From Thermoanaerobaculia bacterium (GTDB taxonomy: Bacteria; Acidobacteriota; Thermoanaerobaculia; UBA5066): DNA of 64,000 nt. The notes below the pieces were generated by a model, which had not been told where the DNA came from, did no database searches, and was given only the letters and a program-made list of their open reading frames with translations. Numbering within the stretch: the first letter of the stretch is position 1; each line of letters starts with the position of its first letter. Made by a program: the position numbers and the translations under genes. Positions 8,127 to 57,155 of this stretch are shown here, in pieces. The stretch is from contig CAWFJJ010000001.1 of the NCBI GenBank assembly GCA_963816185.1, positions 161,224 through 225,223 of the forward strand, given 5' to 3'.

Positions 8127-8139
8127 CCCGTCTGGGAAA

Positions 8140-16358: not shown

Positions 16359-16374
16359 CCTCAGGGCCCTGAGG
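16359..16374. promoter_or_regulatory. Perfect 16-bp palindrome cctcagggccctgagg. It may be an operator for a dimeric regulator.
   Basis: The palindrome was read directly. It lies 12 nt upstream of the DUF2892 start. It is also in the upstream region of the divergent ECF sigma gene. Confidence 0.3.
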
Positions 16375-16385
16375 GGAGAGCAGCA

Positions 16386-16586: not shown

Positions 16587-16626
16587 GTCCAAGATGGACT
16601 CGGTGCGTCAATCTCGCCGGAGGAAC

Positions 16627-18033: not shown

Positions 18034-18036
18034 TTT

Positions 18037-20778: not shown

Positions 20779-20790
20779 GCCAAAGTTCGC

Positions 20791-20806
20791 AGCAAGGGAG
20801 ATGCCA
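20791..20806 (-). promoter_or_regulatory. Candidate sigma54 (-24/-12) promoter TGGCAT-N5-TTGCT for the HK-NtrC operon
   Basis: The reverse complement of 20791-20806 is tggcatctcccttgct. It is one mismatch from TGGCAC-N5-TTGC. The GC of the -12 element lies 14 nt upstream of the HK ATG, so the transcript would be leaderless or nearly so. Confidence 0.45.
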
Positions 20807-20944
20807 GTTATCCGATTCCTTGAATCAGTTTAACTCATTGATGAAATGGGTCTTGCCTGCCATGGAGGGGGGCGAAGAGGTCATGCCTCACGAAATCTTG
20901 AAGACAAACCCGACTATTTGGAGAGCCGACCTTGAAAAGGCAGA

Positions 20945-22882
20945 CTAGAACGAGACCGCGAATCCGCCAGCGAGTCGGCGATTCAGCTTCTCCTCGTCCT
21001 CCCCCTCACGCCGCTTGCCGAGCTCCAGGGAGAACAACGCGCGCAGGTCCGAACCGATCGAGCGCATCGCCTCGAGCGGGATGGACTGCCCGAGCGTGAG
21101 ATCCACCGCCTCGACGTCGTTGTGCAGGACCGCTGTTCCGCGCGTGAGCGATTGCGTCACGACGCGGTAGCCCATGCCGAGCGACGTGTCTGTGGCGCGG
21201 ATGCGGATTGCGGCCCGCACGACGCCCCACGTCGCGTCGTCGGACTGAATCTCGCCGTCGCGCTGTCCCGAGAGCTTTCCCGCGCGCATCGAGACGCGGC
21301 CGTCGAGAGCCTTGCCGAGCCGCGCGGCGGCGCCGAACGAGACGTCCGTCGCGATGTCGTTCGCGAAGAAATAGAGCGAGTCGAGTCGGTCGAGAAAATC
21401 CGGATCGAAAAGCAGGCGGTAGGTGCCCGTGAGCTCGCGACGCGACGCCTCGAGGAAGAGATTCTGGTCCTCGCCGGTCTGCCATCTCAGGCCCGCCTTG
21501 TACAACGCGCGCGAGCGCCGCGTGAGATCGGCCTCGTCGGTGCCCGCCTCTCCCGGCAGGAGCTCGTCGCCGTCGAGACGCCGCTCGAAGCGGCGCGCGG
21601 CGAAGCCGTAGAGCTTCCAGCCGTCGCGCGTCGCGATCGCGAGCGTGACCTCGGGTGTAATGCCGCGCGAACGCTCCGACACGTCGCCCGTCCCGCCCGT
21701 CTCGATCACGAAGACGTCGAGCAAACGGACGCCCGCGACGGCGCCCGCCCGCGTCTCCCGGTCGAAAGGCGACGTCTGGCCGGCGAACTCGTTCATGGCG
21801 CTCCGATAGGAGACGGAGACGCGCGCGAACGTCGAGGAGGAGAGGTCGGTTTGATAGCGGGCGGCGACGTCGACGGCGTTCGACTCCCGCGCGAAAAGGT
21901 CCGCCACGGGCCCTGCCGACAACAGCCGTGACTGCGAGACGACGTGGGCGGAGACCGATGCCTGTGAGCGCTCCGAGACGGCGCCGTTCCAATCGAGAGA
22001 GTGTGCGGCAAAGCGTGCGCCGTCGGCGTCGTCGGCCACGGTCTGCTGGCGGGAGGAGAGGTGAATGTTCTGGCCCGAGCCCATCGGCCCCGATGCCAGG
22101 TCGAGCGCCACGCGCGACGCATCGCCCGTCTTCTCGCCCGACATCGCGGCGAGCCGCGCGTAGGCGCCCGAGGCTCCCCAGCGCAGCTTGTCTCCGGCCG
22201 TTCCGCTCAGATCGAGCGAGGCCCGTGACAGGGAGGAGGCGCCCGCGGCGCCGAATCCCGCGGTGGACGCCACGGACGCGCGGACGGGAAGTGAGGTCGT
22301 TCGCCCGTCACGGCCTGCGATCGAGACGGGGGGCGTCGCGTTCTCGGGTCCTTGCTCGAGGGCGGCCAGCACCGCGGGGACCTCGCGCAGGACGTCGCCT
22401 GGCGCGACGGCGCGTGCGATCCATGCGTCGAGGGGTCCGCCCGTCGCCTCGGGGAGGATGCCGGCCGGAGGTTCGAGATCGAGGCGTACGAAGGAGAGTG
22501 CGCCGTCGGAGGTCGCCCGGTGCAGTAAGCGTACGAGCGCGGGGCGGAAGCCCGGCACGACGGAGAGGACCGTGTAGAGGCCTTCGGCCGCGTCGCCGAG
22601 GACGAACGTGCCGTCCGTGTCGCTCTTGAGGAGCTTCACGACGCTCGCTCCTCCGGCCGTCACGCCGCGCACGACGAGGGCGGCGCCCGGGACGGGCACG
22701 CCGCCGGCCCTCACGATGCCCGACAGAGGGGCCCGGCGCGCTCCGGCTTCGCCCGCGGCCGCGGGGCGCGCAAGAAGCGCCGCCGCAGCCACTCCGGCAA
22801 GCAGGCGTCCGGTCGAGCGGCTCAAAAGGGTCACGAACCCTCCCCTTTGACTATCATCCGCCCGGTTTCGGCGCCCCGTCAA
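20945..22882 (-). CDS. Outer-membrane beta-barrel protein with an N-terminal carboxypeptidase-regulatory-like domain
   Basis: 645 aa. Signal peptide (LLAGVAAAALLARPAAA). CarbopepD_reg-like motif GIVRAGGVPVPGAALVV ... TDGTFVL. The remainder is amphipathic beta-strand-rich and ends in a terminal F. Confidence 0.65.
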   Translation of the reverse strand: MTGRRNRADDSQRGGFVTLLSRSTGRLLAGVAAAALLARPAAAGEAGARRAPLSGIVRAGGVPVPGAALVVRGVTAGGASVVKLLKSDTDGTFVLGDAAEGLYTVLSVVPGFRPALVRLLHRATSDGALSFVRLDLEPPAGILPEATGGPLDAWIARAVAPGDVLREVPAVLAALEQGPENATPPVSIAGRDGRTTSLPVRASVASTAGFGAAGASSLSRASLDLSGTAGDKLRWGASGAYARLAAMSGEKTGDASRVALDLASGPMGSGQNIHLSSRQQTVADDADGARFAAHSLDWNGAVSERSQASVSAHVVSQSRLLSAGPVADLFARESNAVDVAARYQTDLSSSTFARVSVSYRSAMNEFAGQTSPFDRETRAGAVAGVRLLDVFVIETGGTGDVSERSRGITPEVTLAIATRDGWKLYGFAARRFERRLDGDELLPGEAGTDEADLTRRSRALYKAGLRWQTGEDQNLFLEASRRELTGTYRLLFDPDFLDRLDSLYFFANDIATDVSFGAAARLGKALDGRVSMRAGKLSGQRDGEIQSDDATWGVVRAAIRIRATDTSLGMGYRVVTQSLTRGTAVLHNDVEAVDLTLGQSIPLEAMRSIGSDLRALFSLELGKRREGEDEEKLNRRLAGGFAVSF

Positions 22883-29657: not shown

Positions 29658-30563
29658 TCAGCTCCGGAGGTTGATCACGTTGCGGAAATCGAAGACCTCG
29701 AGGTACGCACGGAGGTTCTTGAATTCCGGGTAGAGGTTCGCGAGCCGGTCGAAGTAACCGCGCGCGGCGGCGTCGTCGCCCGCGAGGTGGCACGTCTCAC
29801 CGAGGAGGTAGAGGAAGCTCTTCTCGACGGCGGGCTCCCCGCACAAGGGCACGCGCTCGAGGCCGCACTCGCCGAAAAAGCGAGCCTCCGCGTGCCGATC
29901 GCTCTTCAAGTACCCGAAGCACAGGTCCAGAAGAGGGTAGACCGTGTAGCTTCGGGCGTCCTCTCTCTCGAGCGTCTCGAAGGCCTCGTGTACGAAGGTG
30001 AGGCCTTCGGAAACGCGGTCGAGAGCGATGAGGCAATAGCCGAGGTTGTCGCGCCAGACGGCGCGAAAGATGGTGGACACGCCTTCCCGCCCATCGGTCC
30101 TTTCGAGCGCGCGGCGGTAAATCGCCGCGGCTTCCTCGAAACGACTGTCGACGGTCAGCAGCATGCCCGACTGGTTGTCGCAATGCGCGAGGATCGCCTC
30201 GTCGCCGAGCGCCTCGGCGTGGCGGCGCGCGATACGGTTGTAGAAGAGCGCCTTCTCGAAGTCGCGGCGTAGCTCGTAAACGCGCGCCGACGCATGCGCG
30301 GCGCGAACGGCCGTCGCGGGGCTCGCGGACCGGAGCAGGACGCGCTTGAGCTCGACGAGGACGTCGTCCGCCGGACCCGCCTCGATCGCGGCGTAGGCGC
30401 GGCAGACGTACATCCAGTCTTCGAAGGCGGGGTCTTCGGTCTCACGAGCGGACTCGAGGGCCCGGTCATAAGCCGAAAGCGCGGCGGGAAACTCACCCTT
30501 CTCGAGCAGGGCGAGCGCTTCCTGGCGGGCCGCTTCCGCGGTGGCGCGCGGAGCTTCAGTCAT
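29658..30563 (-). CDS. Tetratricopeptide-repeat protein
   Basis: 301 aa of repeated helical-pair motifs. It overlaps the upstream XRE gene by 8 nt. Confidence 0.65.
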   Translation of the reverse strand: MTEAPRATAEAARQEALALLEKGEFPAALSAYDRALESARETEDPAFEDWMYVCRAYAAIEAGPADDVLVELKRVLLRSASPATAVRAAHASARVYELRRDFEKALFYNRIARRHAEALGDEAILAHCDNQSGMLLTVDSRFEEAAAIYRRALERTDGREGVSTIFRAVWRDNLGYCLIALDRVSEGLTFVHEAFETLEREDARSYTVYPLLDLCFGYLKSDRHAEARFFGECGLERVPLCGEPAVEKSFLYLLGETCHLAGDDAAARGYFDRLANLYPEFKNLRAYLEVFDFRNVINLRS

Positions 30564-30984
30564 CTCCGTCCCCGTCGTGGCTGTCGTCGCCGTCGGGCCG
30601 GGTCTTGTCGACCTGCATTCTCTTGAACGTGACGAATTCGCGGACTTCGCGGCGCGCGCCTTCGGGGAGGGCCGACCAGTCGCGCGCGAGAGGCGCCTCG
30701 TCGAACGGAGCCGGCGGTACGTCGGCCGCCGCCATGTCTGACGACCCCGCCTCGGCCGGGGGCTCCTCGAAGAAGTGGCTCATGGAAAGCTCGAACACCT
30801 GAAGGATCCTGAAGAGAGTGTCGAGACCGACCTTGTACTCACCGTTCTCCATCCGCGACAGGTCGGATTGCGTCACGCCGATGCGGGAGGCGAGCTCCGC
30901 CTGCGTCAGATGCCGGCTCTTCCGGATTTGACGGATCTTCTGCCCCACCAGGAGGATCTGGGACGCACGCGGCACAGCGCTCAT
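30556..30984 (-). CDS. XRE-family helix-turn-helix transcriptional regulator
   Basis: 142 aa. HTH KIRQIRKSRHLTQAELASRIGVTQSDLSRMENGE. Acidic C-terminal tail. Confidence 0.8.
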   Translation of the reverse strand: MSAVPRASQILLVGQKIRQIRKSRHLTQAELASRIGVTQSDLSRMENGEYKVGLDTLFRILQVFELSMSHFFEEPPAEAGSSDMAAADVPPAPFDEAPLARDWSALPEGARREVREFVTFKRMQVDKTRPDGDDSHDGDGDD

Positions 30985-31062
30985 GAGCCTTCATCATCTA
31001 AGATAGTCTCTCCGCCCCGTGTGTCAAGCGGTTTCGGGTGACTTCGGATAAGCGCTACCTCA

Positions 31063-31830
31063 TTGAAGAACAAGATCTTCCTCCTTTCGGAGCTCCTCCG
31101 AAGAGACCTGGCGGCCCGATACGGGGGCAGTTTCGCGGGTCCCTTATGGGCGGTCCTGAACCCGGCTGTCTTCTGCGCGCTCAACGCCTTCGTGTTCGCC
31201 TTTGTCATCAAACTTCCGGTTCCAGCCGGTTTCAAAGGCAGTTATGTGGAGTTCCTCCTGGCAGGCCTCCTCCCCTGGCTCGGCATCCAGGAGGCGGTGA
31301 TGAGGGCCACGGTGTCGGTGAGCGACCAGGCGCATCTCGTCAAGAAGCTGCGTTTCCCGGTTCATCTCCTGACGGCGTCCGCGCTCGGAGCCGCGCTCGT
31401 CGTCCAGGCGATCGGAATGAGCCTCCTGACCGTTTTCCTCCTCGTGACCGGACGCGGCTCCGTGAATTTCGGCCTCCTCGTCGCCGCCTTCGCTTTCGAG
31501 TGCCTCCTTCTCGCCGGGCCGGCCCTCGTTCTCTCGTCGCTGAACGTCTTCTTCCGCGATCTCGCTCAGCTTCTCCCGCCGTTTCTCATGATCGCGTTCT
31601 ACCTCTCGCCGATCATCTATCCCGAATCGATGGTCCCGCGCTTCGCCGCGCCCTTCCTCGCGTTCAACCCGCTGCGCGATCTCCTCGCACTTTTTCGCGC
31701 TGCGCTGTTCGGGGCGCCGCCGCCATCTCTCGCGCACCTCGCCGGGTGGTCGGCCGTGCTCGTCGTGGTAGGCTTGCTGGGAGTCCGGTTCTTTCGGCGG
31801 TGCCGCCCGTCGTTCGCGGACCTTCTCTAG
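31063..31830 (+). CDS. wzm: ABC-2 type polysaccharide export permease (Wzm/KpsM-like)
   Basis: 255 aa with a TTG start and six TM segments. N-terminal LLRRDLAARYGGSFAGPLWA is typical of Wzm/TagG. Confidence 0.75.
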   Translation: MKNKIFLLSELLRRDLAARYGGSFAGPLWAVLNPAVFCALNAFVFAFVIKLPVPAGFKGSYVEFLLAGLLPWLGIQEAVMRATVSVSDQAHLVKKLRFPVHLLTASALGAALVVQAIGMSLLTVFLLVTGRGSVNFGLLVAAFAFECLLLAGPALVLSSLNVFFRDLAQLLPPFLMIAFYLSPIIYPESMVPRFAAPFLAFNPLRDLLALFRAALFGAPPPSLAHLAGWSAVLVVVGLLGVRFFRRCRPSFADLL

Positions 31831-31893: not shown

Positions 31894-33600
31894 GTGAAAG
31901 TGTCCCTCTCCGCCCTCTTGGCGGCTGTACTGGCTGCGGCTATCGGCTGCTCGTCCTCTGGGCCTTCGGCTCCCGCCGCGAAAACCGCGGCCGAAGAGAA
32001 GGCCGCAGAGGACGCGAAGCGAAGTGAACGCGCGAAGGCGCTCCTCGGCCTGCAGCCTCCGGCGCCGGTTCCGGGAGAAGAGACCGGCGAAGTTCCAACG
32101 ACGACGGTCGTGGACCCTGACACCGGAAAGAAGCTCCTCAGGATCCCAAAGCAGATCCTCTATTACGAGAAAGGGGGACGCCTCTTCAACGCCGTCGTGG
32201 TCGGGCCGGGACTCCCGATCGTCCGCGAGGACGACAAGGCGTACTTCATCCTCGCGCCTCCGGAGCGGCCGAAGCCAGCTCCGGGGAAAGCCGGCGAGCC
32301 GGAACCCGAAGACCTCAAGCCGATCATCGAGCTCCCGGCGAGCGAAGCCGCCGTCGTGACGCCGAAGGTCTCGAAGGGCGCGTTTCGTTTCGAGGAGATC
32401 TCCGATGGTTTGCCGGTCGGGGGCATGTGGCGTGAGAACTTCGACGTGGGAGACGTCCTTGGGCAGGGCCGTCCCCAGATCGTCGTGCCGCCGGCCCGGC
32501 TCACGGGCAACTTCATTCGCGTGTACCGGCTCGACAAGGGCGAGGACGACAAGTGGCGCTGGCACCTGGCCAACGTCACGTTCGAAAACGCCGAGAATAT
32601 TCAAGCGGCTTACGGTGCCGCCACCCTCGCGGACATGGACGGCGACGGCAAGCTCGACATCGTCTTCGGAGGACACGGCTCTGGACCCGCGATCGCGTTC
32701 AACAAGGGTGGAGGCGCGTTCAAGGTCGAGACCCTGGGTCTGCCCCGGCAGATGTCGACGCGTGCGATCGCCGTCGGAGACCTCAACGGCGACGGCCGGC
32801 AGGACCTTCTCGCCATCTCCGACGATCCCGAGTGGCTGCTCGCCGCCGGCAAGCCGCACGCCGACAAGGGCAGCTCCTACGTGCGGGGGTACGACGTCCG
32901 GGCCTTCCTGAACGAAGGCACGCGTTTCCGCGAAATTCACAAGGGCCTCGAAGGAGCCTGTTTCGGGTACTCGATTGCGCTCGTCGTGCCGAAGGACGCG
33001 AAGGACGGGCTGCCGTTCTATTCGTCCGGCTGCCGGTACACCTCGAGCGCCACGCATCTCTTCGAGTTCGATCCCAAGCTTGAGGAATTCCGCTACGCGG
33101 GCGTCGGCGTGGTGGAGCTCTTCTCCCAGCACATGGGATCGGCCGCCGGCACGTACCACGGCCGGCCCGCGGCCTTCGCCTCCTGGTTCAAGCGTTCGCC
33201 GTTCGGCGCCACGCCCAAGATCGACGGGCAGGGGGTCACGGTCTATTACCGGGACGTGGACGGGAAGATGGCGAGCAAGCGCGTTGTGAAGACGCTCCAG
33301 CCCGAGGCCCCCGGGTCATCCGGCATCGCCGTCGGGGACCTGAACGGAGACGGCCTCGACGACGTCGTGTGGTGCGACGAAACGTCGCAGCGCATACGGG
33401 TCTTCTTCCAGACGTCCGAGGGCGAATTCGAAGAGCTGCCGACCGAACGGGAGCCGACCTTCATCAACCATCCGACCTCGCTCCGGATCGCGGACTTCGA
33501 CGGGGACGGGCACAAGGACGTCGCCCTCATGTACCAGTACCTCACAGGGGACGAAACCCGGGCGGGTGGATTACGCGTCTTTCGAGGCCTCCCGAAGTGA
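31894..33600 (+). CDS. FG-GAP/VCBS-repeat beta-propeller lipoprotein
   Basis: GTG start with an AGGAG RBS. Lipobox AAAIGC. Repeated DxDGDGxxD motifs (DMDGDGKLD, VGDLNGDGRQD, VGDLNGDGLDD, ADFDGDGHKD). Confidence 0.7.
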   Translation: MKVSLSALLAAVLAAAIGCSSSGPSAPAAKTAAEEKAAEDAKRSERAKALLGLQPPAPVPGEETGEVPTTTVVDPDTGKKLLRIPKQILYYEKGGRLFNAVVVGPGLPIVREDDKAYFILAPPERPKPAPGKAGEPEPEDLKPIIELPASEAAVVTPKVSKGAFRFEEISDGLPVGGMWRENFDVGDVLGQGRPQIVVPPARLTGNFIRVYRLDKGEDDKWRWHLANVTFENAENIQAAYGAATLADMDGDGKLDIVFGGHGSGPAIAFNKGGGAFKVETLGLPRQMSTRAIAVGDLNGDGRQDLLAISDDPEWLLAAGKPHADKGSSYVRGYDVRAFLNEGTRFREIHKGLEGACFGYSIALVVPKDAKDGLPFYSSGCRYTSSATHLFEFDPKLEEFRYAGVGVVELFSQHMGSAAGTYHGRPAAFASWFKRSPFGATPKIDGQGVTVYYRDVDGKMASKRVVKTLQPEAPGSSGIAVGDLNGDGLDDVVWCDETSQRIRVFFQTSEGEFEELPTEREPTFINHPTSLRIADFDGDGHKDVALMYQYLTGDETRAGGLRVFRGLPK

Positions 33601-33666: not shown

Positions 33667-33695
33667 TTGACATCGAGGAATTTTATTCCTATTGT
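33667..33695 (+). promoter_or_regulatory. Sigma70-type promoter candidate (TTGACA-17 nt-TATTGT)
   Basis: The -35 hexamer is at 33667-33672 and the -10 hexamer at 33690-33695. It lies in a low-GC intergenic region ~200 nt upstream of the 33894 gene. Confidence 0.4.
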
Positions 33696-33893: not shown

Positions 33894-35640
33894 ATGAAAA
33901 AGTTTTCCGTCCTCATCGCCTTGGTGCTCCTCGCGGTCGCGGGCACGGGCTATGCGGTCACCTGCGCGTATGACAACGTGCCGGCGGCCACGTTGCTCGT
34001 TCCGTACTGGAAGGTGTCCCTGAACGGGGCCGCGGGCGCGCCCATCCCCACCGGCGGCACGGACACCCTCGTGTCGATCGTCAACGTCTCCACGCCGGGC
34101 GTCATCGCGCACGTCACGGTCTGGAACAAGTATTCCAAGGCTGTCATCGACTTCAACCTTCCCCTCACCGGGAAGGACGAAGTCTCGTTCTCGATGCGCG
34201 ACATCATGAACGGCAGGCTGAGCCCGAACTTCCCGCAGTGCGACCTGCTCCTGCCTGCGGCTGATCTCGCGAAGTGCCTGGCGACCTACAAGGTCGACCC
34301 GTGCGGCCTGAAGAACCCCGGCCTGCCGACCGCGGTGTACGTGCCGAGCGTCGGCTTCGGCCAGACCCAGTTCATCCGCTTCTCGCACCCCGATGCGGCT
34401 GCCCTGGGCACCGATGTCCTCACGTCGATCTCGCAGTACAACCTCACCACTCAGGACGCGATCGGAGCGGGCTTCCGCGGCAGTCGTGTGGAACTCGCTC
34501 GACGAGTCCGGCGACGTCACGTCGTTCACGTCCTCCTCGGGCGCGAACATCCTCGACAAGGACAACCCGGCTTGCGGCTGGGCCGCCAGCAACCCGGTGG
34601 GTGGCGCCCTGTCCGGCTACCTCACGATCGACGTCGTGAACTATTGCACGAACTTCTTCCCCGACCAGGCCGACTTCTACAACAAGGACGCGATCGCGAC
34701 GGCCGGTTGGACCCAGTCCGCGTACACGAACTTCCCGTGCACGACCGGAGTCGCATGCGCCGTCACGTACACGCCGAACGTCCTGATCGGCGACGTGTTC
34801 TACGTTGACACCGCCACGCAGGGCGGCAACGTCTCGGGCGACCCGGCTGTCGCGCTCGAGTTCGACGCGCGCCTCCCGTTCTCGAACGCAAATGAATCGA
34901 TAAACAAGACCTTCTTCGGCAAGTTCGTCGAGCTGGTCGCCGGCGCGACGGCCGCGTGCCCCGCAGAGCTCACGATTGGTTGCCAGAACCCGAACGTCCC
35001 CGTGAATTTCCGGTTCCCCGGCGACGGCCGCGAGCCCCTCGGCGACCATTACGGCTTCCGCTATCTGGCCGACCAGGCCAACGGCCTTCAGTCCTGGATC
35101 ACCGTTTGGCGCAGCGACATCTACCTGGACACCGCTGGCCTCCCCACCGAGGTCAACCTGTGTGACTGGGCCGATCCCACGAAGGACGCCAACAACGGCG
35201 CCTCGGGCTCTGGGCTCTTCGACGATCTGCACCAGGTCGTGATCCTCACCTACGACAACGACGAGAACCTGTTCGGCGGCGTCGGCGTTCCTCCGGGCCC
35301 GTCCGGTCAGCAGCCCGGCAGCTCGTCCCCGAACTACATCTTCCTCGAGTCCCAGCGCATCGACCTGCTCGCGTCATCGACCGCAGGGACTGGCTGGAAC
35401 CCGCAGCCCTTCAAGGGCGGCTGGGTCGACATCACGTTCCGCGGACCCACGTGGACGGGCGCGGATGATGAGACCGGCTTCTGGAACCAGGCTTGGGTCG
35501 GCGTGCAGCACACTGCTCCCGGCGCGTTCATCAGCGTCGGTCACGCCGCGTCAGACCTGAACAATGACTTCCAGTGCCAGCCGAACAGGTCCACGTTTGG
35601 AACGTACGTCAACTTCCAAACGCCCTCAAACGGCTTCTAA
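33894..35640 (+). CDS. Secreted Cys-rich protein of unknown function. It has an apparent +1 frameshift near 34478.
   Basis: AGGAGT RBS. Signal peptide MKKFSVLIALVLLAVAGTGYA. ORF 33894..34808 continues in ORF 34393..35640. The junction ggcttccgcggcagtc is consistent with one extra C. The C-terminal frame extends with no stop. The gene is flanked by its own promoter candidate and terminator. Confidence 0.55.
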
Positions 35641-35662: not shown

Positions 35663-35699
35663 GGGCGGGCGGCTTCGGCCGCCCGCCCTTTTCTTTTCT
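35663..35699 (+). terminator. Rho-independent terminator
   Basis: Perfect 11-bp GC stem gggcgggcggc-ttcg-gccgcccgccc followed by ttttcttttct. Confidence 0.65.
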
Positions 35700-35853
35700 G
35701 AAAGATGCCCCACATCCGGGACACTTCGATCCGGCCCCTCGGCCACGCGTAAATGACGAAACCGGCTGGACACGGCCCACGCTCGGAGATAAACTTACGC
35801 TCGGATCACCTTCGCCCTGGAAGGGTTATTCGCGCCCCTAATCGAGGACCCAG

Positions 35854-38800
35854 ATGCCCCATGTGACCCGCACTCGTCGCCACGATCGTTCTCGCGCGTC
35901 CCTTTTCGTGGCAGGCCCCGCCGCCATGGGACTTCTCCTGGTTCTTGCAACGCTTCCTTCGCGCCTGGAGGGTCAGTGCACGCTGTCGGGCTCGCCGGCT
36001 GCGTTCGAACCGAATCCACCCGGCGTCACGCGGCCCGGAACCCTGAGTAGCGGATTCAACAACAGCCTCGTGCTCTATCAGCCGGCGGCAGCGGTCCGTA
36101 TCGGCTCCTCATGCAGGAGTCGTTCGGCTACTCGGTCCTCGATCTCACGACACCGACGAATCCGACCGCGCTCACGTACCACGACATCCGGTTTCCGTTA
36201 GGCGGCCCCAACAGCGTGCGCGCAAGCCGGCGACGGGCAGAATCTCGTTCAGACGATCGCCGTGTCTCCGGACGGGGTGCGCGGGGCCTTCTCGATGACG
36301 GGGCTGTCGGCGACGATCCAGACGGCCGTCGGAACTCCCAGCGGCGGAGGCGGCTTTACCCTCTGGGGGGATTTCTATCCCAAGCGTTCGAACAGCACGC
36401 TCGTCCAGCACATCGGCACACGTTACATCGCGTACGACATCCACCCGAACGTCGTGACGGCCTCGGACGTCAGCTCGTTACCGGGGGGCTCTCTCCAGCC
36501 CAACAACCTCTCGTACGAGATCACGACGTGGCCGGGCGGAGGCCGCGCGGTCCTGGCCGGGAACTACATTCTCTACCAGATCACCGGCGCCATCCGGGTC
36601 ATCGATGCGTCCCTTCCGGGACCCGTCGGAAACATCACGGCCTCTTACCCGCAGACGTCCATCACGAACGCCGATTTTCCCGGCGGCCGCACGATCGCGA
36701 ACTTCACGGCGGCCGTCGATCCGGCCGACGCGACGAAGCTCTGGGTCCTCGTGGAGCTGAGCGCGCTGGCCGGCGAGAACTCGCCCAGCTACGGGCTTCT
36801 CTCCGTCACGAAGAGCGGCCTCGGAAAGGTCTCGGCGGGCCCGACCTGGCGAGTCCCGTCGCAGACGGGCGACGTGTGGCTGCCCGTGGGGATGAGCTCG
36901 GCTCTCGTTGCGAACGGCACCGACCTGTTCGTCCTGATGTGGGCGGAGAGCCAGCTCCCGACGAACCAGTTCCTCCTCTATTCGACGACGGCGGGAGCAT
37001 GGGGGAGCGTGGCTCCGAGCTCATTTCCCGTGAGCGGCACGACGTTCGCGCTCCCGGGGAGGACGGCGGGCTTCGGGGTCGCGGGGACCAGCTCCGTCTA
37101 CTTGTACGTGCCCACGACGGTGTCCGCATACGTGATCCCGATGTCCTGCGTTTCCGTAAACGCGCCCGCGGTCGCATCGATGACCGTCGCCAACCAGGCG
37201 GGCGCAGCTCTCAACAACGGCGACACCGTGTTCCTGGGCGACCGGATCACGATCACTCCGTCGATCAACCCGCCGCCGTCGACCCAGCCCCTGACGGGAT
37301 TCGGCTGGAACTTCGACCTCGACTTTCACGCGGGCGCCGCGTCCGAAGACAACGGCGCCACCGCGTCGCCACGCCTCCATGCGCCGGACAACACCCTGGG
37401 GGTGTTCGGCGTCAGCCAGCAGGCTCCTCTCCCCGCGACCATCTTCGGCCCTTGTGATCCTCAGGTGGGCGGCGTGACCGTGAGTAGCGGCGCCGGCTGC
37501 TGGACCTCGGTCACGACGAACGGCGCGTTCGCCGGCGGCACGGCGGATTTCAACGCGCAAAGTCCGGTCGCGAAGGCCCTCACCTTCGCATTCGAGGCGA
37601 ACAACGTCCTCGGCAGTGCGGGCTCGAAGCTTTTCACGCTGAACTGGGCGATCCCTACGGCGAAGCTCCAGACGACGCAGGTCCTGTCCGGCAGTCCGCT
37701 CGTGAGCGCCTCCGACGGCCACCCGATGGCCACAGGCTTCAAGTGGTATTTCGGCGCGACTTCGGGGGCCCTGACGCAGGCGGCATGTGCCGGCCCGACG
37801 TGCGTGCCGACGTTCGACACGACGGGCACCTACAACTACTGGCTCACGGCGACGTACGCGAACGGGTACGTGACGCCGGACTGCCCGGGCGCTCCGAACT
37901 GCACGGCCGCGATGGGGACGTACACCATCACCGACTTCGCGCCGGCGTTCACCGTGAACGGCAGCACGAGCGGCCCGATCACGGGGGTCATCAACCAGAA
38001 CTTGAACGTGACGAACAGCTCGCAGCGCGGCCAGACCGTGACCGCCGCGGGAGGTTTCTATTACAGCCTCTGCAAGGTTCCCTGTACGGGCGGGGACCAA
38101 TACGTGCTCTGGGGCACGATGGGCGATGCCCCGCCGAGCGGCTCGCCTCCGTATGGTCCGGCGACGATTCCGATCCCGGCCGACGGCCGGGACCTACGCC
38201 CTCAAGATCAGGGTGAATTACACGAACCCGACCGGGACGGCGTTCTGGCCGGATCCGGCAGGCGTCTCCTACTTCACCGTGAACGTCGTGGACGTGACCC
38301 CGCTCGTCGTGACCGAGTCCGTGAACCCTGCGAGCGCGTCCGTCGGCCAGAACGTGACGTTCTCGTGCAACGCGAGCGGCGGCCTCACGCCCTATTCGTA
38401 CCAGTGGCGAAACCCGATCTCGTTCGTCATCCCTGGCGCAACGGGGCCGACGTACACGACCACGTCGACCGTCGCGGGGGGCGTCACGGCCTACTGCTTC
38501 GTCACGGACAGCCAGCAGCCGGTTCCCGCCTCGAGCAGCGCGAGCGCGACCGCGACGTTCACCGGAGGAGGAGGCGGAGGGGGAGGCGGCGGCGGCAATC
38601 TCTCCGTATACGTCTCGGCGAGTCCAAACCCCGGCGCGGTCGGCCAGCCGGTCACGTTCTCGTGCGGCGCCTCCGGCGGGACGGCTCCCTACTCGTACGT
38701 GTGGCGTTCGCCGGCCACGAGCGCGTTCCAGATCCCGGGAGCGACTTCGTCGAGCTACACGACGTCGTCGTCGGTCGTCGGGAGCCTCTCGGCGGGATGC

Positions 38801-40966
38801 ACCGTCACGGACAACGCCGGCGCGCAGAGCACCAACTCGACTACCGTCGCGATCAACGCTCCGGCCGGTCCGCCCGCCGTGTGCGTGGACGCGAACTTCA
38901 CGGTTCTCGACCGGGGAACCGCCCCCTGGGCCCAGATCCCGTCTTCCTCGGCGCTCGGGATTCAGTACTTCGCGGTGGAAACCGGACAGAAGCTCGCCCT
39001 GGTGGCTTCCGGCACCGGCCTGGCGAGCGCGGACTGGACGTTCGGAAACGGCGACACCGCGAGCGGCAATCCGGTGTGGTATTCGTACGCGACCGCCGGG
39101 ACGTTCAACACGACCCTCACCCTGAACTCGGCAACGGCGGGAACGGCCTGCACGAGGTCCTACAAGTTCATCGTCGCGGGCCCCTCGGGCCTCTTCACGG
39201 CGTACTACGCGGACAGCTCGCAGTTCACCTCGACGCAGGTGCAATCCGGGAAGGAGCTGACTTTCCTGGCCACGGACTCGGCCGACAGCTACGCGTGGGA
39301 CTTCGGCGACGGCACCACGGCGACCGGGAAGAGCGTGACGCACGCGTTCCACGTCAGCGGCGGGACGAGCGTCACGTTCACGACGACCCTCACCGTGACG
39401 ATCGGCTCGCAGAACTTGACGACGACGCAGAACTTCACCGTCATTCCGCCGCCCGAGCCGCCGAAGTGGTTCGTCGCGGGCATGGCGTACCTCCAGGGCT
39501 CGCTCGGGGACACGCTCTGGCAGACGGACGTCACCCTTTTCAACCCCGACCCGACCCGTCCGGGTACGTATTCACTCGCCTTCCTCGACGGAAGATCCCC
39601 CGTCGATCCGGCCAACCTCGTCTGGAAGACGATCAATCTCGGCGCGCAGCAGAGCATCTCGTCGCCGAACATCCTGGCCTTCTTCGGGCAGCCGCTCGGA
39701 AGCTACGGAGCCCTTCTCGTGCGGGGCGACTCGGCTCCCGTACCGCCCGTTCTGACGGCGCGTACGTTCAACAGCGGCGACCCCACGAAAGGGACGTTCG
39801 GTCTGTCCGTGCCGTCCACGCAGCCGTCCAGCGGCCTGACGCCTCAGGCCGCGCTCGCGCAGCAGTTCCTCATCGGCCTGCGTGACGACGACACGGCTTA
39901 CACGAACATCGGCCTCATGAACGTCACGACCGACTGGAGCCACGCGCGGCTCGAGTTCACGGATCGCAGCGGAGCCACGAGCTTCGGCAATGTGAACGTG
40001 GACGTGCCGCCGTACGGCGTCGCGCAGCTCTCGCGCCCGCTCTTCGCGGCTCCGCCCAACGGCGTGGGGTTCACGGATGCGCTGGACGAATTCAGCGTCA
40101 AGGTGTCGGTCCTCTCCGGCGGCGCGGTCTTCCCCTACGCGACCGTCATCGACCGCCGGTCGACGGACTCGATCGTCGTGACCGCGTCCGACCGGCCCTC
40201 GCCCACGTCTCGCATGCCCGGCATCATTCGCCTGCAGGGCGCGAACAACACCACGTGGCGGAGCCGTTTCTACATCACGAACCCGTCGACGACGTCCCGT
40301 AAGGCGTCGATCTCCTACTCCTTCATTCCCTGCGACGCGACCGGCTTCTGCAGGGGCCGCGTCACGGGCCTGCAGGCCGACGTGACGATGCTGCCTGGCG
40401 AGACGCTCTGGGCCGACGACTTCCCGAAAGTGTGGCTGGCCGGCTTCGGGTTCGACGTCTCCGACACCACGTCCTACGCGTCCTCGTACGTCGACGTCTC
40501 TCCTTCCCCCGACGACCCGAACCAGGATCCGCTGCTCGTCCTCGGCCAGACGTACAACGACCAGCCGAACGGCCCCGTGGGCCTTCAGGTGCCGGGCTTC
40601 ACCGACGCGGACACCGCTTCGAAGAACGGCGCTTACAAGCGCCTCCTCCTCGCGGGCCTGATCTCGAACGCCTCGTACCGCACGAACGTCGCGGTGTTCC
40701 TCCAGAGAGGCACGTCGGGAAAGTGCACGTTGCACGTGCTGTCCGACACCGGCGTCGAGCTGGGCCACCAGGACATCGGATTCGGCGGCACGAACACGTT
40801 CGTCCAGATCAACGACTCCGCGCTCTTCGGATCGATCTCCGGCAACAAGGACCGGCTCACGATCGTGATCGACTCGTTCGACGGCTCGCCCATCTCGGCG
40901 TACGCGACCGTCGTCGACAATACCTCGGGCGACGCGACGTTCCTGAAGGCCCAACCGGCCCCCTGA
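35854..40966 (+). CDS. Giant secreted Ser/Thr/Gly-rich surface protein (~1700 aa) with PKD-like repeats and a poly-Gly11 tract. It is broken by at least 3 apparent frameshifts.
   Basis: Signal peptide in ORF 35854..36201. The protein continues in frame 0 (36111..), frame 1 (36262..) and frame 2 (38126..40966). Each junction gives a continuous sensible protein. PKD signatures: WDFGDGTTATGKSVTHAF and TFSCNASGGLTPYSYQWR/TFSCGASGGTAPYSYVWR. The junction at ~38190 (ggccgggacc) fits one extra G. Confidence 0.55.
38564..38596 (+). repeat. (GGN)11 simple repeat encoding Gly11
   Basis: The run ggaggaggaggcggagggggaggcggcggcggc lies inside the giant protein gene. Confidence 0.8.
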
Positions 40967-41074: not shown

Positions 41075-42271
41075 ATGCCCTCTCTCCCTTATTCGTTCTC
41101 GAACCTGAGCAAGGTCTACCGCCTCTACTCGGCTCCGCGCGACCGCCTTCTCGAAGCGCTGACCGGCCGCCCGCGACACGCCGAGGTCCACGCGCTCTCG
41201 GACGTTTCCGGGGGCATCGACCGGGGCGCGGTCCTCGGCGTCATCGGCGAGAACGGCTCGGGCAAGAGCACGCTCTTCAAGATCCTTGCGGGAACCACGG
41301 CCGCGACGTCGGGCAGCGTGAGCCTGCCGGGGCGGGTGGCGTCGATCCTCGAGCTGGGGGGGGCCTTCCATCCGGAGGACACGGGCCGGCGCAACGTGAT
41401 CCTGCAGGCCGCCCTCGCGGGGCTCTCGCGCGAGGAGGTCTCCGCGGCTTTGCCGGAGATCGAGGCGTTCGCCGAGCTCGGCGATTTTTTCAACCGGCCC
41501 GTCAAGACGTACTCCTCGGGCATGCAGATGCGGCTCGCGTTCTCGGTCGCGACCGCGGTTCTGCCCGACGTGATCCTGCTCGACGAAGCGCTCGCCGTGG
41601 GCGACGGCCGTTTCCAGAAGAAGTGCGTCGACCGCATTTTCGAGCTCAAGGCCGCGGGCAAGACGATCTTCTTCTGCAGCCACGCCATGTACTACGTGTC
41701 GACGCTGTGCGACCGCGCGCTCTGGCTGAACGCGGGCCGCGTGGAGGCCGCGGGCGACGCGCAGAGCGTCGTTCTGGAGTATGAGAAGTTCCTCGCGCGG
41801 AAGGACGCCGCCGTGCCCCATCAACCCCGCCCGCCCGCGGATTCGCACGGACACATCACGGGCCTTTCCTTCGTCGGCGCCGACGGGATCGACACGGAAG
41901 AATTCCGTCCGAACGAGCCGTGGGTCGCCGAGGTCTCGTTCGAGGGCGACACACCCGAACGGCTCATGCACGTTCATCTGGGCGTCGCGACGCTCGATGG
42001 TGTCGTGTGCTTTACGGCCGACTCTCGTCTCGATGGCGCGGGACCCTTCGGAGGACGAACCCGGCACCGGATCCGCATCGCCCTCGAGAAATTGCCTCTC
42101 GGGAAAGGAGAGTTCGTCGCGAACGTCTTCCTTGGCGACGAGAAAGCTCTCGCGCTCTACGACTCGCGGAGCCGCACGTTCCGCGTGGAATCCGAGACTT
42201 GGCGGAACGGTCTGATGAGCCCGCCGCTCACGTGGAAGACGATTCCCGCGCGGGGCGACGGCCCCGGATGA
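41075..42271 (+). CDS. wzt: Polysaccharide ABC transporter ATP-binding protein Wzt with a C-terminal extension (putative carbohydrate-binding domain)
   Basis: 398 aa. Walker A GENGSGKST, signature YSSGMQMRL, Walker B ILLDEA. About 150 aa lie beyond the NBD (GHITGLSFVGADG ... ). This resembles the Wzt C-terminal O-antigen-binding domain. Confidence 0.85.
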   Translation: MPSLPYSFSNLSKVYRLYSAPRDRLLEALTGRPRHAEVHALSDVSGGIDRGAVLGVIGENGSGKSTLFKILAGTTAATSGSVSLPGRVASILELGGAFHPEDTGRRNVILQAALAGLSREEVSAALPEIEAFAELGDFFNRPVKTYSSGMQMRLAFSVATAVLPDVILLDEALAVGDGRFQKKCVDRIFELKAAGKTIFFCSHAMYYVSTLCDRALWLNAGRVEAAGDAQSVVLEYEKFLARKDAAVPHQPRPPADSHGHITGLSFVGADGIDTEEFRPNEPWVAEVSFEGDTPERLMHVHLGVATLDGVVCFTADSRLDGAGPFGGRTRHRIRIALEKLPLGKGEFVANVFLGDEKALALYDSRSRTFRVESETWRNGLMSPPLTWKTIPARGDGPG

Positions 42272-51728: not shown

Positions 51729-53261
51729 GTGTCGGTTCCTCGATCGGATCGCATCCCGCCCCTGTTGCTCGCTGCGTTCGCCGCCCTGGGGGCGTTGCCG
51801 GTCGTGCGCTCCCTCGTCGTCGCCGACGTCAACCTCTGCTACCCGTACATGACGGCGGACTCGTACGACTGGATCAGCAACGGCCTCTTCTGGTCGGGCA
51901 AGCCGGTCCTCGCGAGCCTGCGGCCGCCGGGGCTGCCCCTTGTCATCGCCGGGCTCTCGAGGCTCGGGGCGCTGTCGCTGCTCCCCGTCGTGAGCTTTCT
52001 CTTCCTCGGCCTCTCGACGGCTCTCCTCTACCTTCTCCTGAGGGAGCGGCACGACGCGTGGATCGCGGCGGCGGCCTCCTGGTTCTTCTTCGCGAACGAC
52101 GCCGTGCAGGACCTCGCGAGATACGTGCTGGCCGAGACCTACGCGACGCCCTTCGTCATCCTCGCGGCGCTCGCGTTCGTGCGCGCGGAACGCGACGTCC
52201 GGTGGTACCGCGTGATGGGAGGGGCGCTCGCGACCGCGTTCCTCTTCTCGTACGCCGCGGTTCCCGCGGGCATCGGGCTCGCGGTCGCCGTCGTCGCCGT
52301 GCGGGCCGGGGACGTGCGGAGCAAGGAGCTCTGGAAGGGCGCGCTGTCGACCGTGGTTGTCGCCCTCGGCTGGTTCGCCGTGCGCTCGTGGTTCCAACAC
52401 GCCCACCCGGACGCTCCTCGCCACGACTTCGAGGCGCTGCTCAGGCCGACGCTGTCGAACCTGACGTCGTACGCGATTTCCGGCGTCGCACTCCTCGGGC
52501 TCCTGCTGCTTCCGCTTTACGCGCTGGGGGCGTTGCGGCTCCTCGCCGGCGGCGTGGCCTCCCGCCGTTACCGGGCCGCGTCGATCTTCGCCGCCTCGGC
52601 GATCCTCGTCTTCATGGTCTTCTTCTACGACTGGGCCGACAAGCGATTCCTCGTCTACGTCCTCCCGTTCGCTACGTGCGCTTTCGCGGAGGGGCTCGAG
52701 AGTCTGCGGAGGTACGCAAAGCGAGGGCGCCTCGCGGCAACGGCGGCAGCCGCCTTCCTCGCCGCGTGTCTTCTCTGGAACCAGATCCGGTACCCGAGTT
52801 ACGGCTTTGGCTATCTCGCCCTGACGCCGGAGCGGTTCTTCGTGGCGGGGCGCACGACCGCGGCCAACCTGAAGACCGAGCTGCACCTGACGGGTGCGCA
52901 CCTCGTGCGCCTCCACGAGACGCTGGCCTCGAGTTTTTCGCGTGGGCTCTTCGATCCCCGTCCGCGCCCGGCGCCCTGTTCTCTCGCCGATCCCGCCTTC
53001 ACGTGCCTCGGGGCGCTCAAGGGTGCGGCGGACAGACTCCTCGCGGAGGGCCAGCCGATCGGATTCCGGCCGCCACAGAGCTGGCCCGCGGACAGGCTCG
53101 TGAGCTTCATTCGGCTCCGCAACATTTTCCTGAGGCCGATCGTCGATCCCGGAGCCGCCGACATCAGCCTGGCGGGTGTCGAGGCCGCACCGGGTGCGGA
53201 CTTCTCCCAGCCTCCGTTCGTGGCCCGCTGCGGGCCGTACGTACTCGTGCGGACGCGTTGA
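51729..53261 (+). CDS. Polytopic membrane protein. It is a candidate GT-C-fold glycosyltransferase or glycan ligase/polymerase.
   Basis: 510 aa with a GTG start. About 10 predicted TM helices in the first 330 aa, then a soluble C-terminal domain. The GT-C assignment is inference from architecture and locus context only. Confidence 0.4.
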   Translation: MSVPRSDRIPPLLLAAFAALGALPVVRSLVVADVNLCYPYMTADSYDWISNGLFWSGKPVLASLRPPGLPLVIAGLSRLGALSLLPVVSFLFLGLSTALLYLLLRERHDAWIAAAASWFFFANDAVQDLARYVLAETYATPFVILAALAFVRAERDVRWYRVMGGALATAFLFSYAAVPAGIGLAVAVVAVRAGDVRSKELWKGALSTVVVALGWFAVRSWFQHAHPDAPRHDFEALLRPTLSNLTSYAISGVALLGLLLLPLYALGALRLLAGGVASRRYRAASIFAASAILVFMVFFYDWADKRFLVYVLPFATCAFAEGLESLRRYAKRGRLAATAAAAFLAACLLWNQIRYPSYGFGYLALTPERFFVAGRTTAANLKTELHLTGAHLVRLHETLASSFSRGLFDPRPRPAPCSLADPAFTCLGALKGAADRLLAEGQPIGFRPPQSWPADRLVSFIRLRNIFLRPIVDPGAADISLAGVEAAPGADFSQPPFVARCGPYVLVRTR

Positions 53262-53323: not shown

Positions 53324-54034
53324 ATGAAGTACGACGCCGTCATGGCCGCCCTTCGCGCGTTCGTCGTCGAGGGCGGCAAGCCCGAGAGCATCTTCCTTCT
53401 CACCGAAGGAGGAATGCGCGAGATCTACGATTGCATCGTCAAGAATCGGCTGCGCGCCTGCCTCGAGCTTGGGAGCGGATTCGGCGCGACGAGCTGTGTG
53501 ATGGGAGCGGCTGTGGCGGAGACGGGGGGCACCGTCACCACCATCGATCTTGCCCTCCACTGGCCCGCAAACGCCTCCACGTTGAAGGCGCACGTTGGAC
53601 TCGGTAACGAGCTCGAGGTCGTCGCGGATCCGCTCGGTTACAACTGGTACCTCGCCGACCTGATCGCAAAGCGGACCGTCAGCGGGAAGTGCGAGCCGCT
53701 GTTCGACTTCTGTTTCCTGGACGGCGCGCACGAGTGGGAGCCGGACGCTCTCGCAGTGATCCTCGCCGCGAAGCTCCTGAAGCCGGGCGGCTGGCTTGTC
53801 CTCGACGACCTCGACTTTGCTCTCCGGAGCATGCCGACGTGGAAGGAGTCGCACGGCCACCTGTCCGACCGCGAGCTCGACTCGTACCAACTCAAGATGG
53901 TCTGGGACCTCGTGATCAGACAACATCCCGACCTGACAGCCTTCGAAGTCACTGGGAACGGACGTATCGGCTGGGCGAGGAAGGTGGGCGTTTCGGCGGG
54001 CAAGGGATTGTTTTCCCGGCTCCTGGGCGGATGA
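53324..54034 (+). CDS. Class I SAM-dependent methyltransferase (O-methyltransferase-like, Methyltransf_24/TylF-type)
   Basis: SAM motif LELGSGFGATS. Acidic motif FCFLDGAHEWE. A possible GTG start at 53306. Confidence 0.7.
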   Translation: MKYDAVMAALRAFVVEGGKPESIFLLTEGGMREIYDCIVKNRLRACLELGSGFGATSCVMGAAVAETGGTVTTIDLALHWPANASTLKAHVGLGNELEVVADPLGYNWYLADLIAKRTVSGKCEPLFDFCFLDGAHEWEPDALAVILAAKLLKPGGWLVLDDLDFALRSMPTWKESHGHLSDRELDSYQLKMVWDLVIRQHPDLTAFEVTGNGRIGWARKVGVSAGKGLFSRLLGG

Positions 54035-54080
54035 CCGCCTCCTCCTCGCCTCGGACTCGCTGACCGTACAATTCCGTCGT

Positions 54081-56106: not shown

Positions 56107-57155
56107 GGTCCACGTCCTCCACGGCTTCTATGGCGCGGAGATTCCCTACAGCTGCACGTACATCCGCCTCCTGCGCCCGCTCTCGCATCCGGCCCTCGCT
56201 GACGAGATCGACCTGACGCACGGCACGGCGGAAGCGGTGCCCGACTGCGACCTCCTCGTCGTCGAGCGGCACGTTCTCTGGCCGTACGAGAGGCAGCTGG
56301 ACGGATTCGTCCGCGTGCTTTCCCGTTGCCGGCAGAAGGGCATCCCCGTCGTCTACGAGCTCGACGACAACCTGCTCGACCTCCACCGCGACGAGCCGTG
56401 GGAGACCGTACCCGGGAGACTCGCTCCGCGCCGTCGTCGCGTTTCTCGCGCGCCAGGCCGACGGCATGATCGTCTCGACGCCGGCGCTCGCGGAGCGCGT
56501 GGCGGATCTCAGAAGCGGGGTTCTCGTCGTGCCGAGTGCGCTCGACGAACGGCTCTTCGGCTCCGCGCCGGATCCCTTCCTGTCGCATTCATCCACGGTG
56601 ACGATCGGCTACATGGGCACGCTGACGCACGAGGCGGACCTCCGCATGGTGCTCGCGCCGCTCCGGGCGCTCCTCGCGCGCCACGCCGGAAGGGTGCGGC
56701 TGGAGCTCGTGGGCGGAGTCGCGGGGCGGAGGACGGCGTCACTTTTCGATGGCCTGCCGTTCCGGATGCGGGAGCCGGGGAACGAGGACCCTTACCCGAG
56801 GTTCGTCCCGTGGATGCGGCAGCATCTGCGATGGGACGTCGCGATCGCGCCGCTCGAGGACAACCCTTTCACGCGGTGCAAGTCCGACCTCAAGTACCTC
56901 GACTACGCGGCGCTCGGGATTCCGGCCGTCTTCAGCGACGTGCGCCCCTACCGGGATACGGTGCGCCATCGCGAGACGGGTCTCCTCGCTGCGAACGAGC
57001 CCAAGGCGTGGGCGGACGCGCTCGAGGAAATCGTGAGAGACGGCGCCCTTCGCGCACGGCTCGCGGAGGCCGCGAAGGCCGAGGTACACGGCAGCCGGAT
57101 GCTGAGGACGAACGCCGTGCTTTGGCGCGAGGTCCTGCTTTCGGTCGGTCGTTAG
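56093..57155 (+). CDS. Glycosyltransferase (GT-B, family 1/4-like). It has an apparent frameshift near 56420.
   Basis: N-terminal part in ORF 56093..57895 (TTG start). It continues in ORF 56466..57155 (GDSLRAVVAFLARQADGMIVSTPALAERV ... IGYMGTL). The junction gtacccgggagac fits one extra G. Confidence 0.6.

Follow-up and report, generated by a model that had tools for sequence, protein, structure and literature searches.

The 64,000-nucleotide stretch of Thermoanaerobaculia contig CAWFJJ010000001.1 analysed here (the window, in whose coordinates all positions are given; G+C approximately 68%) contains, on its forward strand, what is best explained as one gene for a Sec-exported, multi-domain beta-protein of approximately 1,703 amino acids, with a family of orthologues in Thermoanaerobaculia and Holophagales. 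We put the probability of this reading at roughly 0.7. In the assembled sequence the gene is split by three single-base insertions or deletions (indels), which most likely arose as consensus errors in an error-prone assembly of long reads. Consensus error is favoured because intact orthologues read through the gene, because breaks of this kind are all but confined to Nanopore-only assemblies, and because their sites differ from genome to genome. The gene and its breaks are as follows.

35854-40966, forward strand: the whole gene, encoding a secreted multi-domain protein of about 1,703 amino acids by way of three single-base indels; stop codon at 40964-40966.
36083-36096, forward strand: frame break 1, a missing base (-1), most simply placed at CAGCC^GGCGGC; restored reading LVLYQPGGSGPYRLLMQESFGY.
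36219-36222, forward strand: frame break 2, a surplus base (+1) in a GCGCGC run, GTGCGC[G]CAAGCC at about 36222; repaired reading PNSVRQAGDGQNLVQ.
38182-38188, forward strand: frame break 3, a surplus G (+1) at about 38185, GCCGAC[G]GCCGGG; repaired reading ATIPIPADAGTYALKIRVNY.

Translation of the forward frames places the coding frame at position modulo 3 = 1 from 35854 to about 36100, 0 from about 36103 to 36219, 1 again from 36220 to about 38190, and 2 from about 38193 to 40966. A codon-usage Viterbi segmentation, trained on the other genes of the window and independent of the translation, gave segments at 36103-36219, 36220-38192 and 38193-40951, in agreement with the translated frames. 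Joined together, the segments encode approximately 1,703-1,704 amino acids, and only some 40 codons are displaced at the first two breaks because these cancel each other. The closest homologue, P0058, which is 83% identical, is read across breaks 1 and 2 without interruption, with LVLYQPGGGGPYRLLMQESFGY at the first site and PNSVRQAGDGQNLVQ at the second, the latter being the same as in the repaired window sequence. At the site of break 3, orthologues have ATIPIPGT-AGNYALKIRVSY and similar sequences. The peptides that span the junctions of the reconstruction are ...LYQPGGSGPYR..., ...NSVRQAGDGQNLVQ... and ...IPIPADAGTYALK..., also given as NSVRQAGDGQNLVQTIAVSPDGVR and ATIPIPADAGTYALK.

Scanning of species-representative genomes with an alignment of the C-terminal region yielded 75 loci, which were then searched with the reconstruction by tblastn. 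An uninterrupted open reading frame (ORF) of 1,675-1,817 amino acids is present in each of 12 metagenome-assembled genomes (MAGs), independent of one another, from Thermoanaerobaculia and Holophagales. Seven of these (L015, L025, L027, L028, L030, L036 and L038) align from residue 2 or so to residue 1704 in a single frame and a single high-scoring segment pair, at 39-67% identity (67% for L015), and the other five (L032, L035, L039, L048 and L050) align as same-frame pairs. All 12 intact ORFs have a signal peptide and share the end ...DATFVKAQPxP; normally, therefore, the gene is a single ORF. The window gene is collinear with the intact ORFs from end to end and lies at the same position in the locus (25 of 25 loci examined). 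Judged by sequence, the family to which it belongs is thus that of the approximately 1,700-residue orthologues, as yet unnamed, of Thermoanaerobaculia and Holophagales, from soil and sediment Acidobacteriota. A preliminary description of this stretch had proposed one continuous protein across three frame changes, and translation, Viterbi segmentation and intact orthologous ORFs all agree with it. The size of about 1,700 residues given there is likewise correct, although with orthologues of similar length the protein is better called large than "giant".

Fragmentation of the orthologue is strongly associated with sequencing technology. It is frame-broken in seven of nine Nanopore-only Microflora Danica (MFD) loci, as against about 1 of the 16 loci from Illumina or hybrid assemblies (Fisher p = 5e-4). 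The MFD MAGs were assembled from Nanopore reads alone and received a single round of Medaka polishing (PMC12313526). Their broken orthologues have 2-7 breaks apiece at differing positions, and both the positions and the directions of the breaks vary between genomes. Locus L005, which by its record name belongs to an activated-sludge long-read MAG series, has one break, a -1 shift in a G5 homopolymer.

Several observations nevertheless weigh against consensus error. The large gene holds 3 of the approximately 7 breaks of the window in 8% of its length (p ~ 0.014), and the four breaks in the 22 kb that are syntenic with L005 all affect either the large gene or the secreted-protein gene next to it (p ~ 0.01), the 13 neighbouring syntenic genes being unbroken. 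G/C homopolymer density is not raised in the gene and offers no explanation, with runs of at least 4 occurring at 8.0 per kb in the gene versus 6.7 per kb in the window. It may be that the frameshifts are authentic and recent in the source genome, which we regard as improbable. The locus would then be decaying and the window copy a true pseudogene with three real indels, a matter of the state of this copy and not of its function. The fragmentation of the same gene in several other MAGs could be read in this way, as could a crude dN/dS of 0.46-0.8 against L001, L005 and L006, a weak value that is not relied on because third codon positions are 85-90% G+C, with dS likely to be saturated or constrained. 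However, fragmentation follows technology and not lineage, and the break sites are different in every genome. Past break 3 the correct frame stays open for 926 codons, whose product shares 75% identity with the unbroken L015 orthologue, and breaks 1 and 2 compensate for one another within 130 nucleotides. Unrelated genes of the window are broken as well, including one with FHA-GAF and SpoIIE regions (at about 14911), the secreted neighbour of the large gene (at about 34480) and probably two GT4 glycosyltransferase genes. Authentic stop codons would make the window copy a pseudogene, and the nature of the gene family would be unchanged.

A regulatory origin of the breaks, whether by programmed ribosomal frameshifting or by phase variation, with the frame read through or switched in vivo, is extremely improbable. 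Frame changes do recur in the large gene across several assemblies, and in three genomes one lies roughly around the point where the N-terminal module gives way to the Ig-like domains (residue 778 in the window, about 792 in L005 and a position between about 819 and 917 in L006). The sites and directions are nevertheless unlike. The shift in L005 is -1, opposite to the +1 of window break 3, and there is therefore no conserved programmed shift. No slippery heptamer or long simple repeat is present at the break sites, 12 orthologues have no need of a frameshift, and the breaks go with sequencing technology.

The breaks also have a hotspot within the gene cluster, which extends from the ABC-2 permease gene wzm through the large gene to the ATPase gene wzt and a block of glycosyltransferase genes. 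In the nine MFD loci there are 47 frame changes in the half from wzm to the large gene versus 2 in the half from wzt to PIG-L, and breaks in Nanopore-only MAGs are approximately 12 times denser per kb in the former half (wzm, FG-GAP, 533-amino-acid-type and large genes) than in the wzt/glycosyltransferase half; the Illumina and hybrid loci have one frame change in total across the cluster. This comparison set L001, L006, L008, L010, L023, L031 and L058 against the unbroken L027, L028, L032, L035, L036 and L038. The left half of the cluster also evolves faster, the large gene being 44% identical to that of L005 versus 83% for Wzt. A possible cause of the hotspot is strain-level heterogeneity that degrades the long-read consensus in the fast-evolving half.

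Frame changes elsewhere in the window are of several kinds. At 13968-15630 (forward strand), FHA-GAF and SpoIIE/PP2C regions lie in different frames that switch at about 14911 with no stop codon there, probably owing to a single-base indel in this cytoplasmic, unrelated gene. Two GT4 genes at 54027-57155 (forward strand) are probably split, at about 54635 and 56407, and in them coding signal precedes the first start of the downstream frame. At 4040-8285 (reverse strand) there is a second ABC-2 permease/ATPase pair (4456-6216), adjoining DUF420, a UbiA-family prenyltransferase gene and a COX15/CtaA-family gene; the first 50 or so profile positions of its permease are missing from the frame, perhaps through an indel near 5112. 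A peptide chain release factor gene (PCRF and RF-1 domains) followed by rpmE, encoding ribosomal protein L31, occupies 12467-13830 (reverse strand). A prfB programmed frameshift at 13600 on that strand was considered and ruled out, the frame switch being the boundary with the adjacent rpmE gene.

The reconstructed protein is made up of the following parts, from N- to C-terminus.

35854-35973, forward strand: Sec-type signal peptide MPHVTRTRRHDRSRASLFVAGPAAMGLLLVLATLPSRLEG / QC, with a hydrophobicity maximum at residues 14-36 and a putative cleavage site.
35974-37323, forward strand: N-terminal module, residues about 41-490, predicted to be beta-propeller-like (about 70-490 in the model).
37375-38296, forward strand: beta-sandwich region with Cys, residues about 508-815, conserved in a 1,123-residue paralogue family.
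38297-38563, forward strand: Ig-like domain 1, motif GGLTPYSYQW (Pfam Ig_3 42.8 bits, Ig_2 30.4 bits).
38564-38596, forward strand: Gly11 linker, (GGN)11, with codons GGA GGA GGA GGC GGA GGG GGA GGC GGC GGC GGC.
38597-38866, forward strand: Ig-like domain 2, motif GGTAPYSYVW (second Pfam Ig_3 stretch; K319L-like_PKD sub-threshold).
38882-39448, forward strand: two PKD domains, residues about 1011-1199, with cores WTFGNGDTASG and WDFGDGTTATGKSVTHAF.
39464-40963, forward strand: C-terminal 500-residue module of two all-beta units of about 250 residues (39464-40198 and 40199-40963), ending ...DATFLKAQPAP.

The signal peptide named in the preliminary description is supported by its N-terminal hydrophobic maximum and by an [AG]-QC junction that is conserved in alignments of the orthologues. 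Its hydrophobic region (residues 14-36 or so) contains the only strongly hydrophobic 19-residue windows in the protein. A Tat signal was rejected, since homologues do not preserve the RR of TRTRRHDRSR and the x-F-L-K consensus does not come after it.

Recognition by Pfam and NCBIfam is restricted to the middle of the protein, which has two Ig-like and two PKD domains. The scores of the former exceed the Pfam cutoffs (30 for Ig_3 and 27 for Ig_2). These are the regions first described as PKD-like modules, each followed by a TPYSY[QV]WR motif; the Ig_3 match of 42.8 bits makes them Ig-like instead, with the motif, which is of SprB type, inside the domain. Assignment to the SprB repeat family itself (PF13573) fails, at 20.7 bits against a cutoff of 28, and the Ig-like assignment (PF13927, Ig_3) holds. 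Two genuine PKD domains (PF00801 / PF18911) are present besides the Ig-like pair, matching PKD_4 at 62.0 bits (cutoff 27) and PKD at 52.1 bits (cutoff 23.5), and they alone were matched in PDB profile searches, to the PKD structures of the clostridial collagenase ColH. The canonical WDFGDGTTATGKSVTHAF core reported earlier, also written WDFGDGTTATG, does lie within one of these domains. The Gly11 tract can be read directly from the codons and is specific to the lineage, its place being taken by G5PPAGG in L015, by poly-Pro in L030 and by short linkers in others. The protein has 24 N-x-S/T sequons. The repeats rich in S, T, G and N that had been described are real as a compositional bias (the N-terminal part is rich in S, T, G and A, with an S+T content of 21.5%) and not as repeats, the Gly tract being the sole repeat that Tandem Repeats Finder detects in the gene.

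The N-terminal module has no Pfam, NCBIfam or PDB sequence-profile match, and the beta-sandwich region has no family match. An AlphaFold2 model of the N-terminal 815 residues has a mean pLDDT of 77, with values mostly of 80-94 in the propeller-like stretch. Its top Foldseek matches are the beta-propeller ectodomains, with PKD/Ig domains, of the eukaryotic VPS10 receptor SorCS2 and plexin, together with Bacteroides periplasmic sensors of the BT4663 type, at TM-scores of 0.19-0.29 and 7-10% identity. These proteins also place a propeller before a beta-sandwich, a likeness that is one of generic architecture only. The same propeller and sandwich are found in a paralogue family of approximately 1,123 residues (P0068, at 10001-13375 of L004, with P0061, P0064 and P0073), which has a different C-terminal domain of about 150 residues with a conserved (S/T)PCR(L/V)LDTRN motif; its genomic surroundings are unrelated.

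The C-terminal module is modelled by AlphaFold2 with high confidence as all-beta (pLDDT 93, pTM 0.90), and hhalign shows the one half to be homologous to the other (probability 99.9%, E = 9.5e-33). The 500 residues have no Pfam or NCBIfam match at E <= 1 and no sequence relative in the PDB. Foldseek searches of the PDB with the model gave no convincing match and no barrels, the top hits being weak MG/Ig-like arrays at TM-scores of 0.10-0.19. These include alpha-2-macroglobulin/thioester proteins, to which the module does not belong by the same TM-scores and by a search for the CxEQ motif (C[GL]EQ), which is not present. It is the best-conserved part of the protein, at 75% identity to L015 versus approximately 65% for the rest, and in distant orthologues at 44-53% versus 20-36% in the two Ig-like domains, which are the least conserved.

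Beyond the orthologues, the module defines a large family. Its profile detects 4,058 cluster representatives at E <= 1e-3 and 2,071 at E <= 1e-10. In 127 of the 132 best representatives the module ends within 15 residues of the C-terminus, in proteins of 132-2,917 amino acids. It can stand alone behind a signal peptide, as in P0003, and it also follows N-termini with PKD, Kelch, NHL, Flg_new, BACON, DUF11/CARDB and beta-helix regions. A search of the window with the module's hidden Markov model (HMM) found no second copy. Some genomes have two module proteins in tandem, as at 2-1720 and 1835-6043 of L020 and at 5878-8568 and 8600-11401 of L066 (all forward strand). Distant members of the family match DUF5719 (PF18986) at 23.2-25.8 bits, below the cutoff of 26.2, and the window protein itself does not match it at E <= 1, which leaves kinship with DUF5719 unproven and no guide to function; a literature search on that family found no paper.

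Because the module family is large, unmodelled and almost always at the extreme C-terminus, the module is the best candidate for an attachment or sorting part of the protein. Searches for familiar signals of this kind agree with the earlier statement that LPXTG, PEP-CTERM and autotransporter barrels are lacking, with no match by regular expression, hydropathy, Pfam and NCBIfam or Foldseek. Regular expressions found no LPXTG or lipobox ([LVI][ASTVI][GAS]C) in the protein, and hydropathy revealed no second transmembrane segment or basic tail. The sole PEP lies in an internal PPPEPPKW linker, there is no NCBIfam anchor match, and in the last 500 residues neither the autotransporter barrel (PF03797) nor a C-terminal domain (CTD) of the type IX secretion system (T9SS) Por_Secre_tail type was matched by HMM at E <= 1. 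The module resembles the T9SS CTD, PEP-CTERM, LPXTG and autotransporter barrel in standing at the very end of many secreted proteins that are otherwise unrelated and often very large. However, it is far larger (approximately 370-500 residues in tandem beta units), has no sequence match to them, no transmembrane segment or basic tail and no barrel-type PDB match, and is not accompanied by a conserved neighbouring processing enzyme. In 26 non-syntenic module loci, a search for a recurrent neighbour gene, such as a sortase-like partner, found no family common to more than three loci.

The large gene lies in a cluster with the following features.

30556-30990, reverse strand: HTH regulator (Pfam).
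31063-31830, forward strand: ABC-2 permease Wzm (Pfam ABC2_membrane).
31894-33600, forward strand: FG-GAP protein (Pfam).
33894-35640, forward strand: 533-amino-acid-type secreted protein, frame-broken at about 34480 (confirmed against L005), with no Pfam match.
35663-35688, forward strand: strong terminator-like hairpin, 11 G-C pairs and then a T-run, between the 533-amino-acid-type gene and the large gene (consensus scan).
35767-35795, forward strand: promoter-like site TGGACA-17-TAAACT, about 60 nucleotides 5' of the ATG (consensus match only).
6 nucleotides 5' of the ATG, forward strand: Shine-Dalgarno-like GAGGA, from the sequence.
41075-42271, forward strand: Wzt-type ABC ATPase with ABC_tran and Wzt_C domains (Pfam).

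The order in the window is thus TPR (reverse), HTH (reverse), wzm, FG-GAP, 533-amino-acid-type gene, large gene and wzt. Downstream of wzt are GT4, GNAT (reverse), GT2, GT2-GT4 (reverse), GT2 (reverse), PIG-L and PEGA genes, and past PEGA there are an ORF without a family match, a borderline PMT_2 glycosyltransferase gene of the GT-C type, methyltransferase genes and further GT4 genes. The hairpin at 35663-35688 and the promoter-like site at 35767-35795, both of them consensus matches only, would part the large gene from its upstream neighbour. That neighbour has a promoter-like site of its own at 33667-33695 (10 of 12 matches, approximately 200 nucleotides upstream) and the very strong hairpin downstream; its L005 orthologue has 533 amino acids, and the layout recalls that of an abundant structural-protein gene.

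The conserved core of HTH, wzm, FG-GAP, 533-amino-acid-type and large genes is present in every one of the 25 loci examined, with identity falling to approximately 30% in Holophagales. The wzt/glycosyltransferase block 3' of the large gene occurs in Thermoanaerobaculia-type loci only. In L048, a Holophagales-type locus, the place of wzt is taken by a 2,885-residue ORF (12603-21260, forward strand) whose sole Pfam match is CarboxypepD_reg.

Tentatively, and with less than even confidence, the protein may belong to the cell envelope or surface and have no enzymatic role. The propeller would be a distal binding head, the fast-evolving Ig/PKD segment a spacer, and the strongly conserved C-terminal tandem module the constant element responsible for attachment or sorting; the protein might be attached to a glycan carried by the Wzm(/Wzt) exporter that is conserved alongside it. 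A more specific version is doubtful: the tandem beta module of about 250-residue units could be a new kind of domain for cell-surface attachment or sorting in Acidobacteriota and neighbouring phyla, with the five-gene core specifying a glycan-anchored layer or appendage that docks on a Wzm/Wzt polysaccharide. Such a layer may be likened to RsaA of Caulobacter, an S-layer bound to O-antigen. Counting against these proposals, the Holophagales-type loci have no adjacent wzt/glycosyltransferase block, the contexts of module-bearing paralogues are unrelated and have no neighbour gene in common, and neither of the two large modules has a sequence or fold match that points to an activity (Foldseek TM-scores below 0.3).

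A second model is provided by the surface-layer glycoprotein (slg) gene clusters, in which the protein itself is glycosylated. These clusters contain wzm/wzt and have as defining parts a Wzy_C O-oligosaccharyltransferase (WsaB/WsfB) and an initiating phosphoglycosyltransferase; in Geobacillus stearothermophilus the S-layer glycoprotein gene sgsE is found with wzm, wzt and wsaA-F (PMC2943079). The window locus is similar in having a large secreted structural-type protein gene beside wzm, wzt (with Wzt_C), glycosyltransferase and methyltransferase genes. It is unlike them in that its protein genes lie between wzm and wzt. The wzm/wzt transporter is present (ABC2_membrane at 31063-31830; ABC_tran and Wzt_C at 41075-42271). 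However, no Wzy_C O-oligosaccharyltransferase, PglL, PglB or initiating phosphoglycosyltransferase was found among the approximately 60 window ORFs scanned with Pfam, a set that left out a few at about 57.8-59.5 kb and some short ones, and such genes could also lie outside the window. The only candidate for a periplasmic-face glycosyltransferase in the window is a 510-residue membrane protein at 51729-53261 (forward strand), whose PMT_2 score of 26.1 bits is exactly at the gathering cutoff; that family comprises dolichyl-phosphate-mannose protein mannosyltransferases and ArnT-like enzymes.

It is accordingly doubtful that the large protein is O- or N-glycosylated after export, in an S-layer/slg-like fashion, with a glycan made by the flanking glycosyltransferases and moved by Wzm/Wzt. 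The PMT_2-type GT-C candidate, the S+T content and the sequons would fit, as would the finding that every Thermoanaerobaculia-type locus has the large gene between wzm and wzt, and the precedent of the Geobacillus and Paenibacillus slg clusters with Wzm/Wzt (PMC2943079). On the other hand, S/T richness is common among beta-rich secreted proteins, Holophagales-type orthologues do without the neighbouring wzt/glycosyltransferase block, and the transferases named above were not found. The claim that the surrounding glycan machinery has this protein as its most likely cargo or substrate is therefore not supported as it was stated, the evidence for it being gene order and S/T richness only.

Polysaccharide clusters often carry a dedicated gene for a degrading or trimming enzyme, and it could be that the large protein is a secreted glycan-processing enzyme, its propeller acting as a lyase or hydrolase that remodels the exported polysaccharide and its Ig/PKD segment and C-terminal module serving as carbohydrate-binding accessories. 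In favour of this, the conserved core has two propeller-type proteins, the FG-GAP protein and the large protein, and one of the fold matches of the latter is to the glycan-sensing periplasmic domain of BT4663. This role is nevertheless quite improbable. Pfam, NCBIfam and PDB sequence searches gave no match to a glycoside hydrolase or polysaccharide lyase family, the fold matches are to generic propellers at TM-scores below 0.3, and no catalytic residues were identified.

As reconstructed, the window protein joins the familiar class of large secreted proteins that contain PKD and Ig domains. With members that use such domains as spacers (PF00801/PF18911), ColH among them, it shares PKD domains, a Sec signal and a beads-on-a-string all-beta layout. 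In contrast to ColH-type proteins, PKD and Ig domains account for only about a quarter of its length, it has no protease or other catalytic domain, and its N-terminal part of approximately 780 residues and C-terminal part of 500 residues are without a named family.

The finding is mostly a matter of data quality, namely that three indels in what is probably a long-read assembly have split one large secreted protein. As frame breaks are approximately 12 times denser in the fast-evolving half of the cluster in Nanopore-only MAGs, surface-protein genes will be systematically over-called as pseudogenes or fragments there. The biology to be recorded is the strictly conserved five-gene core around the ABC-2 permease (Wzm) of Thermoanaerobaculia and Holophagales, abundant and uncultured Acidobacteriota of soils and sediments whose cell envelopes are essentially unstudied. 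The C-terminal 500 residues of the large protein represent a large, unannotated, C-terminus-specific family, which is a reasonable candidate for a means by which these bacteria attach very large surface proteins.

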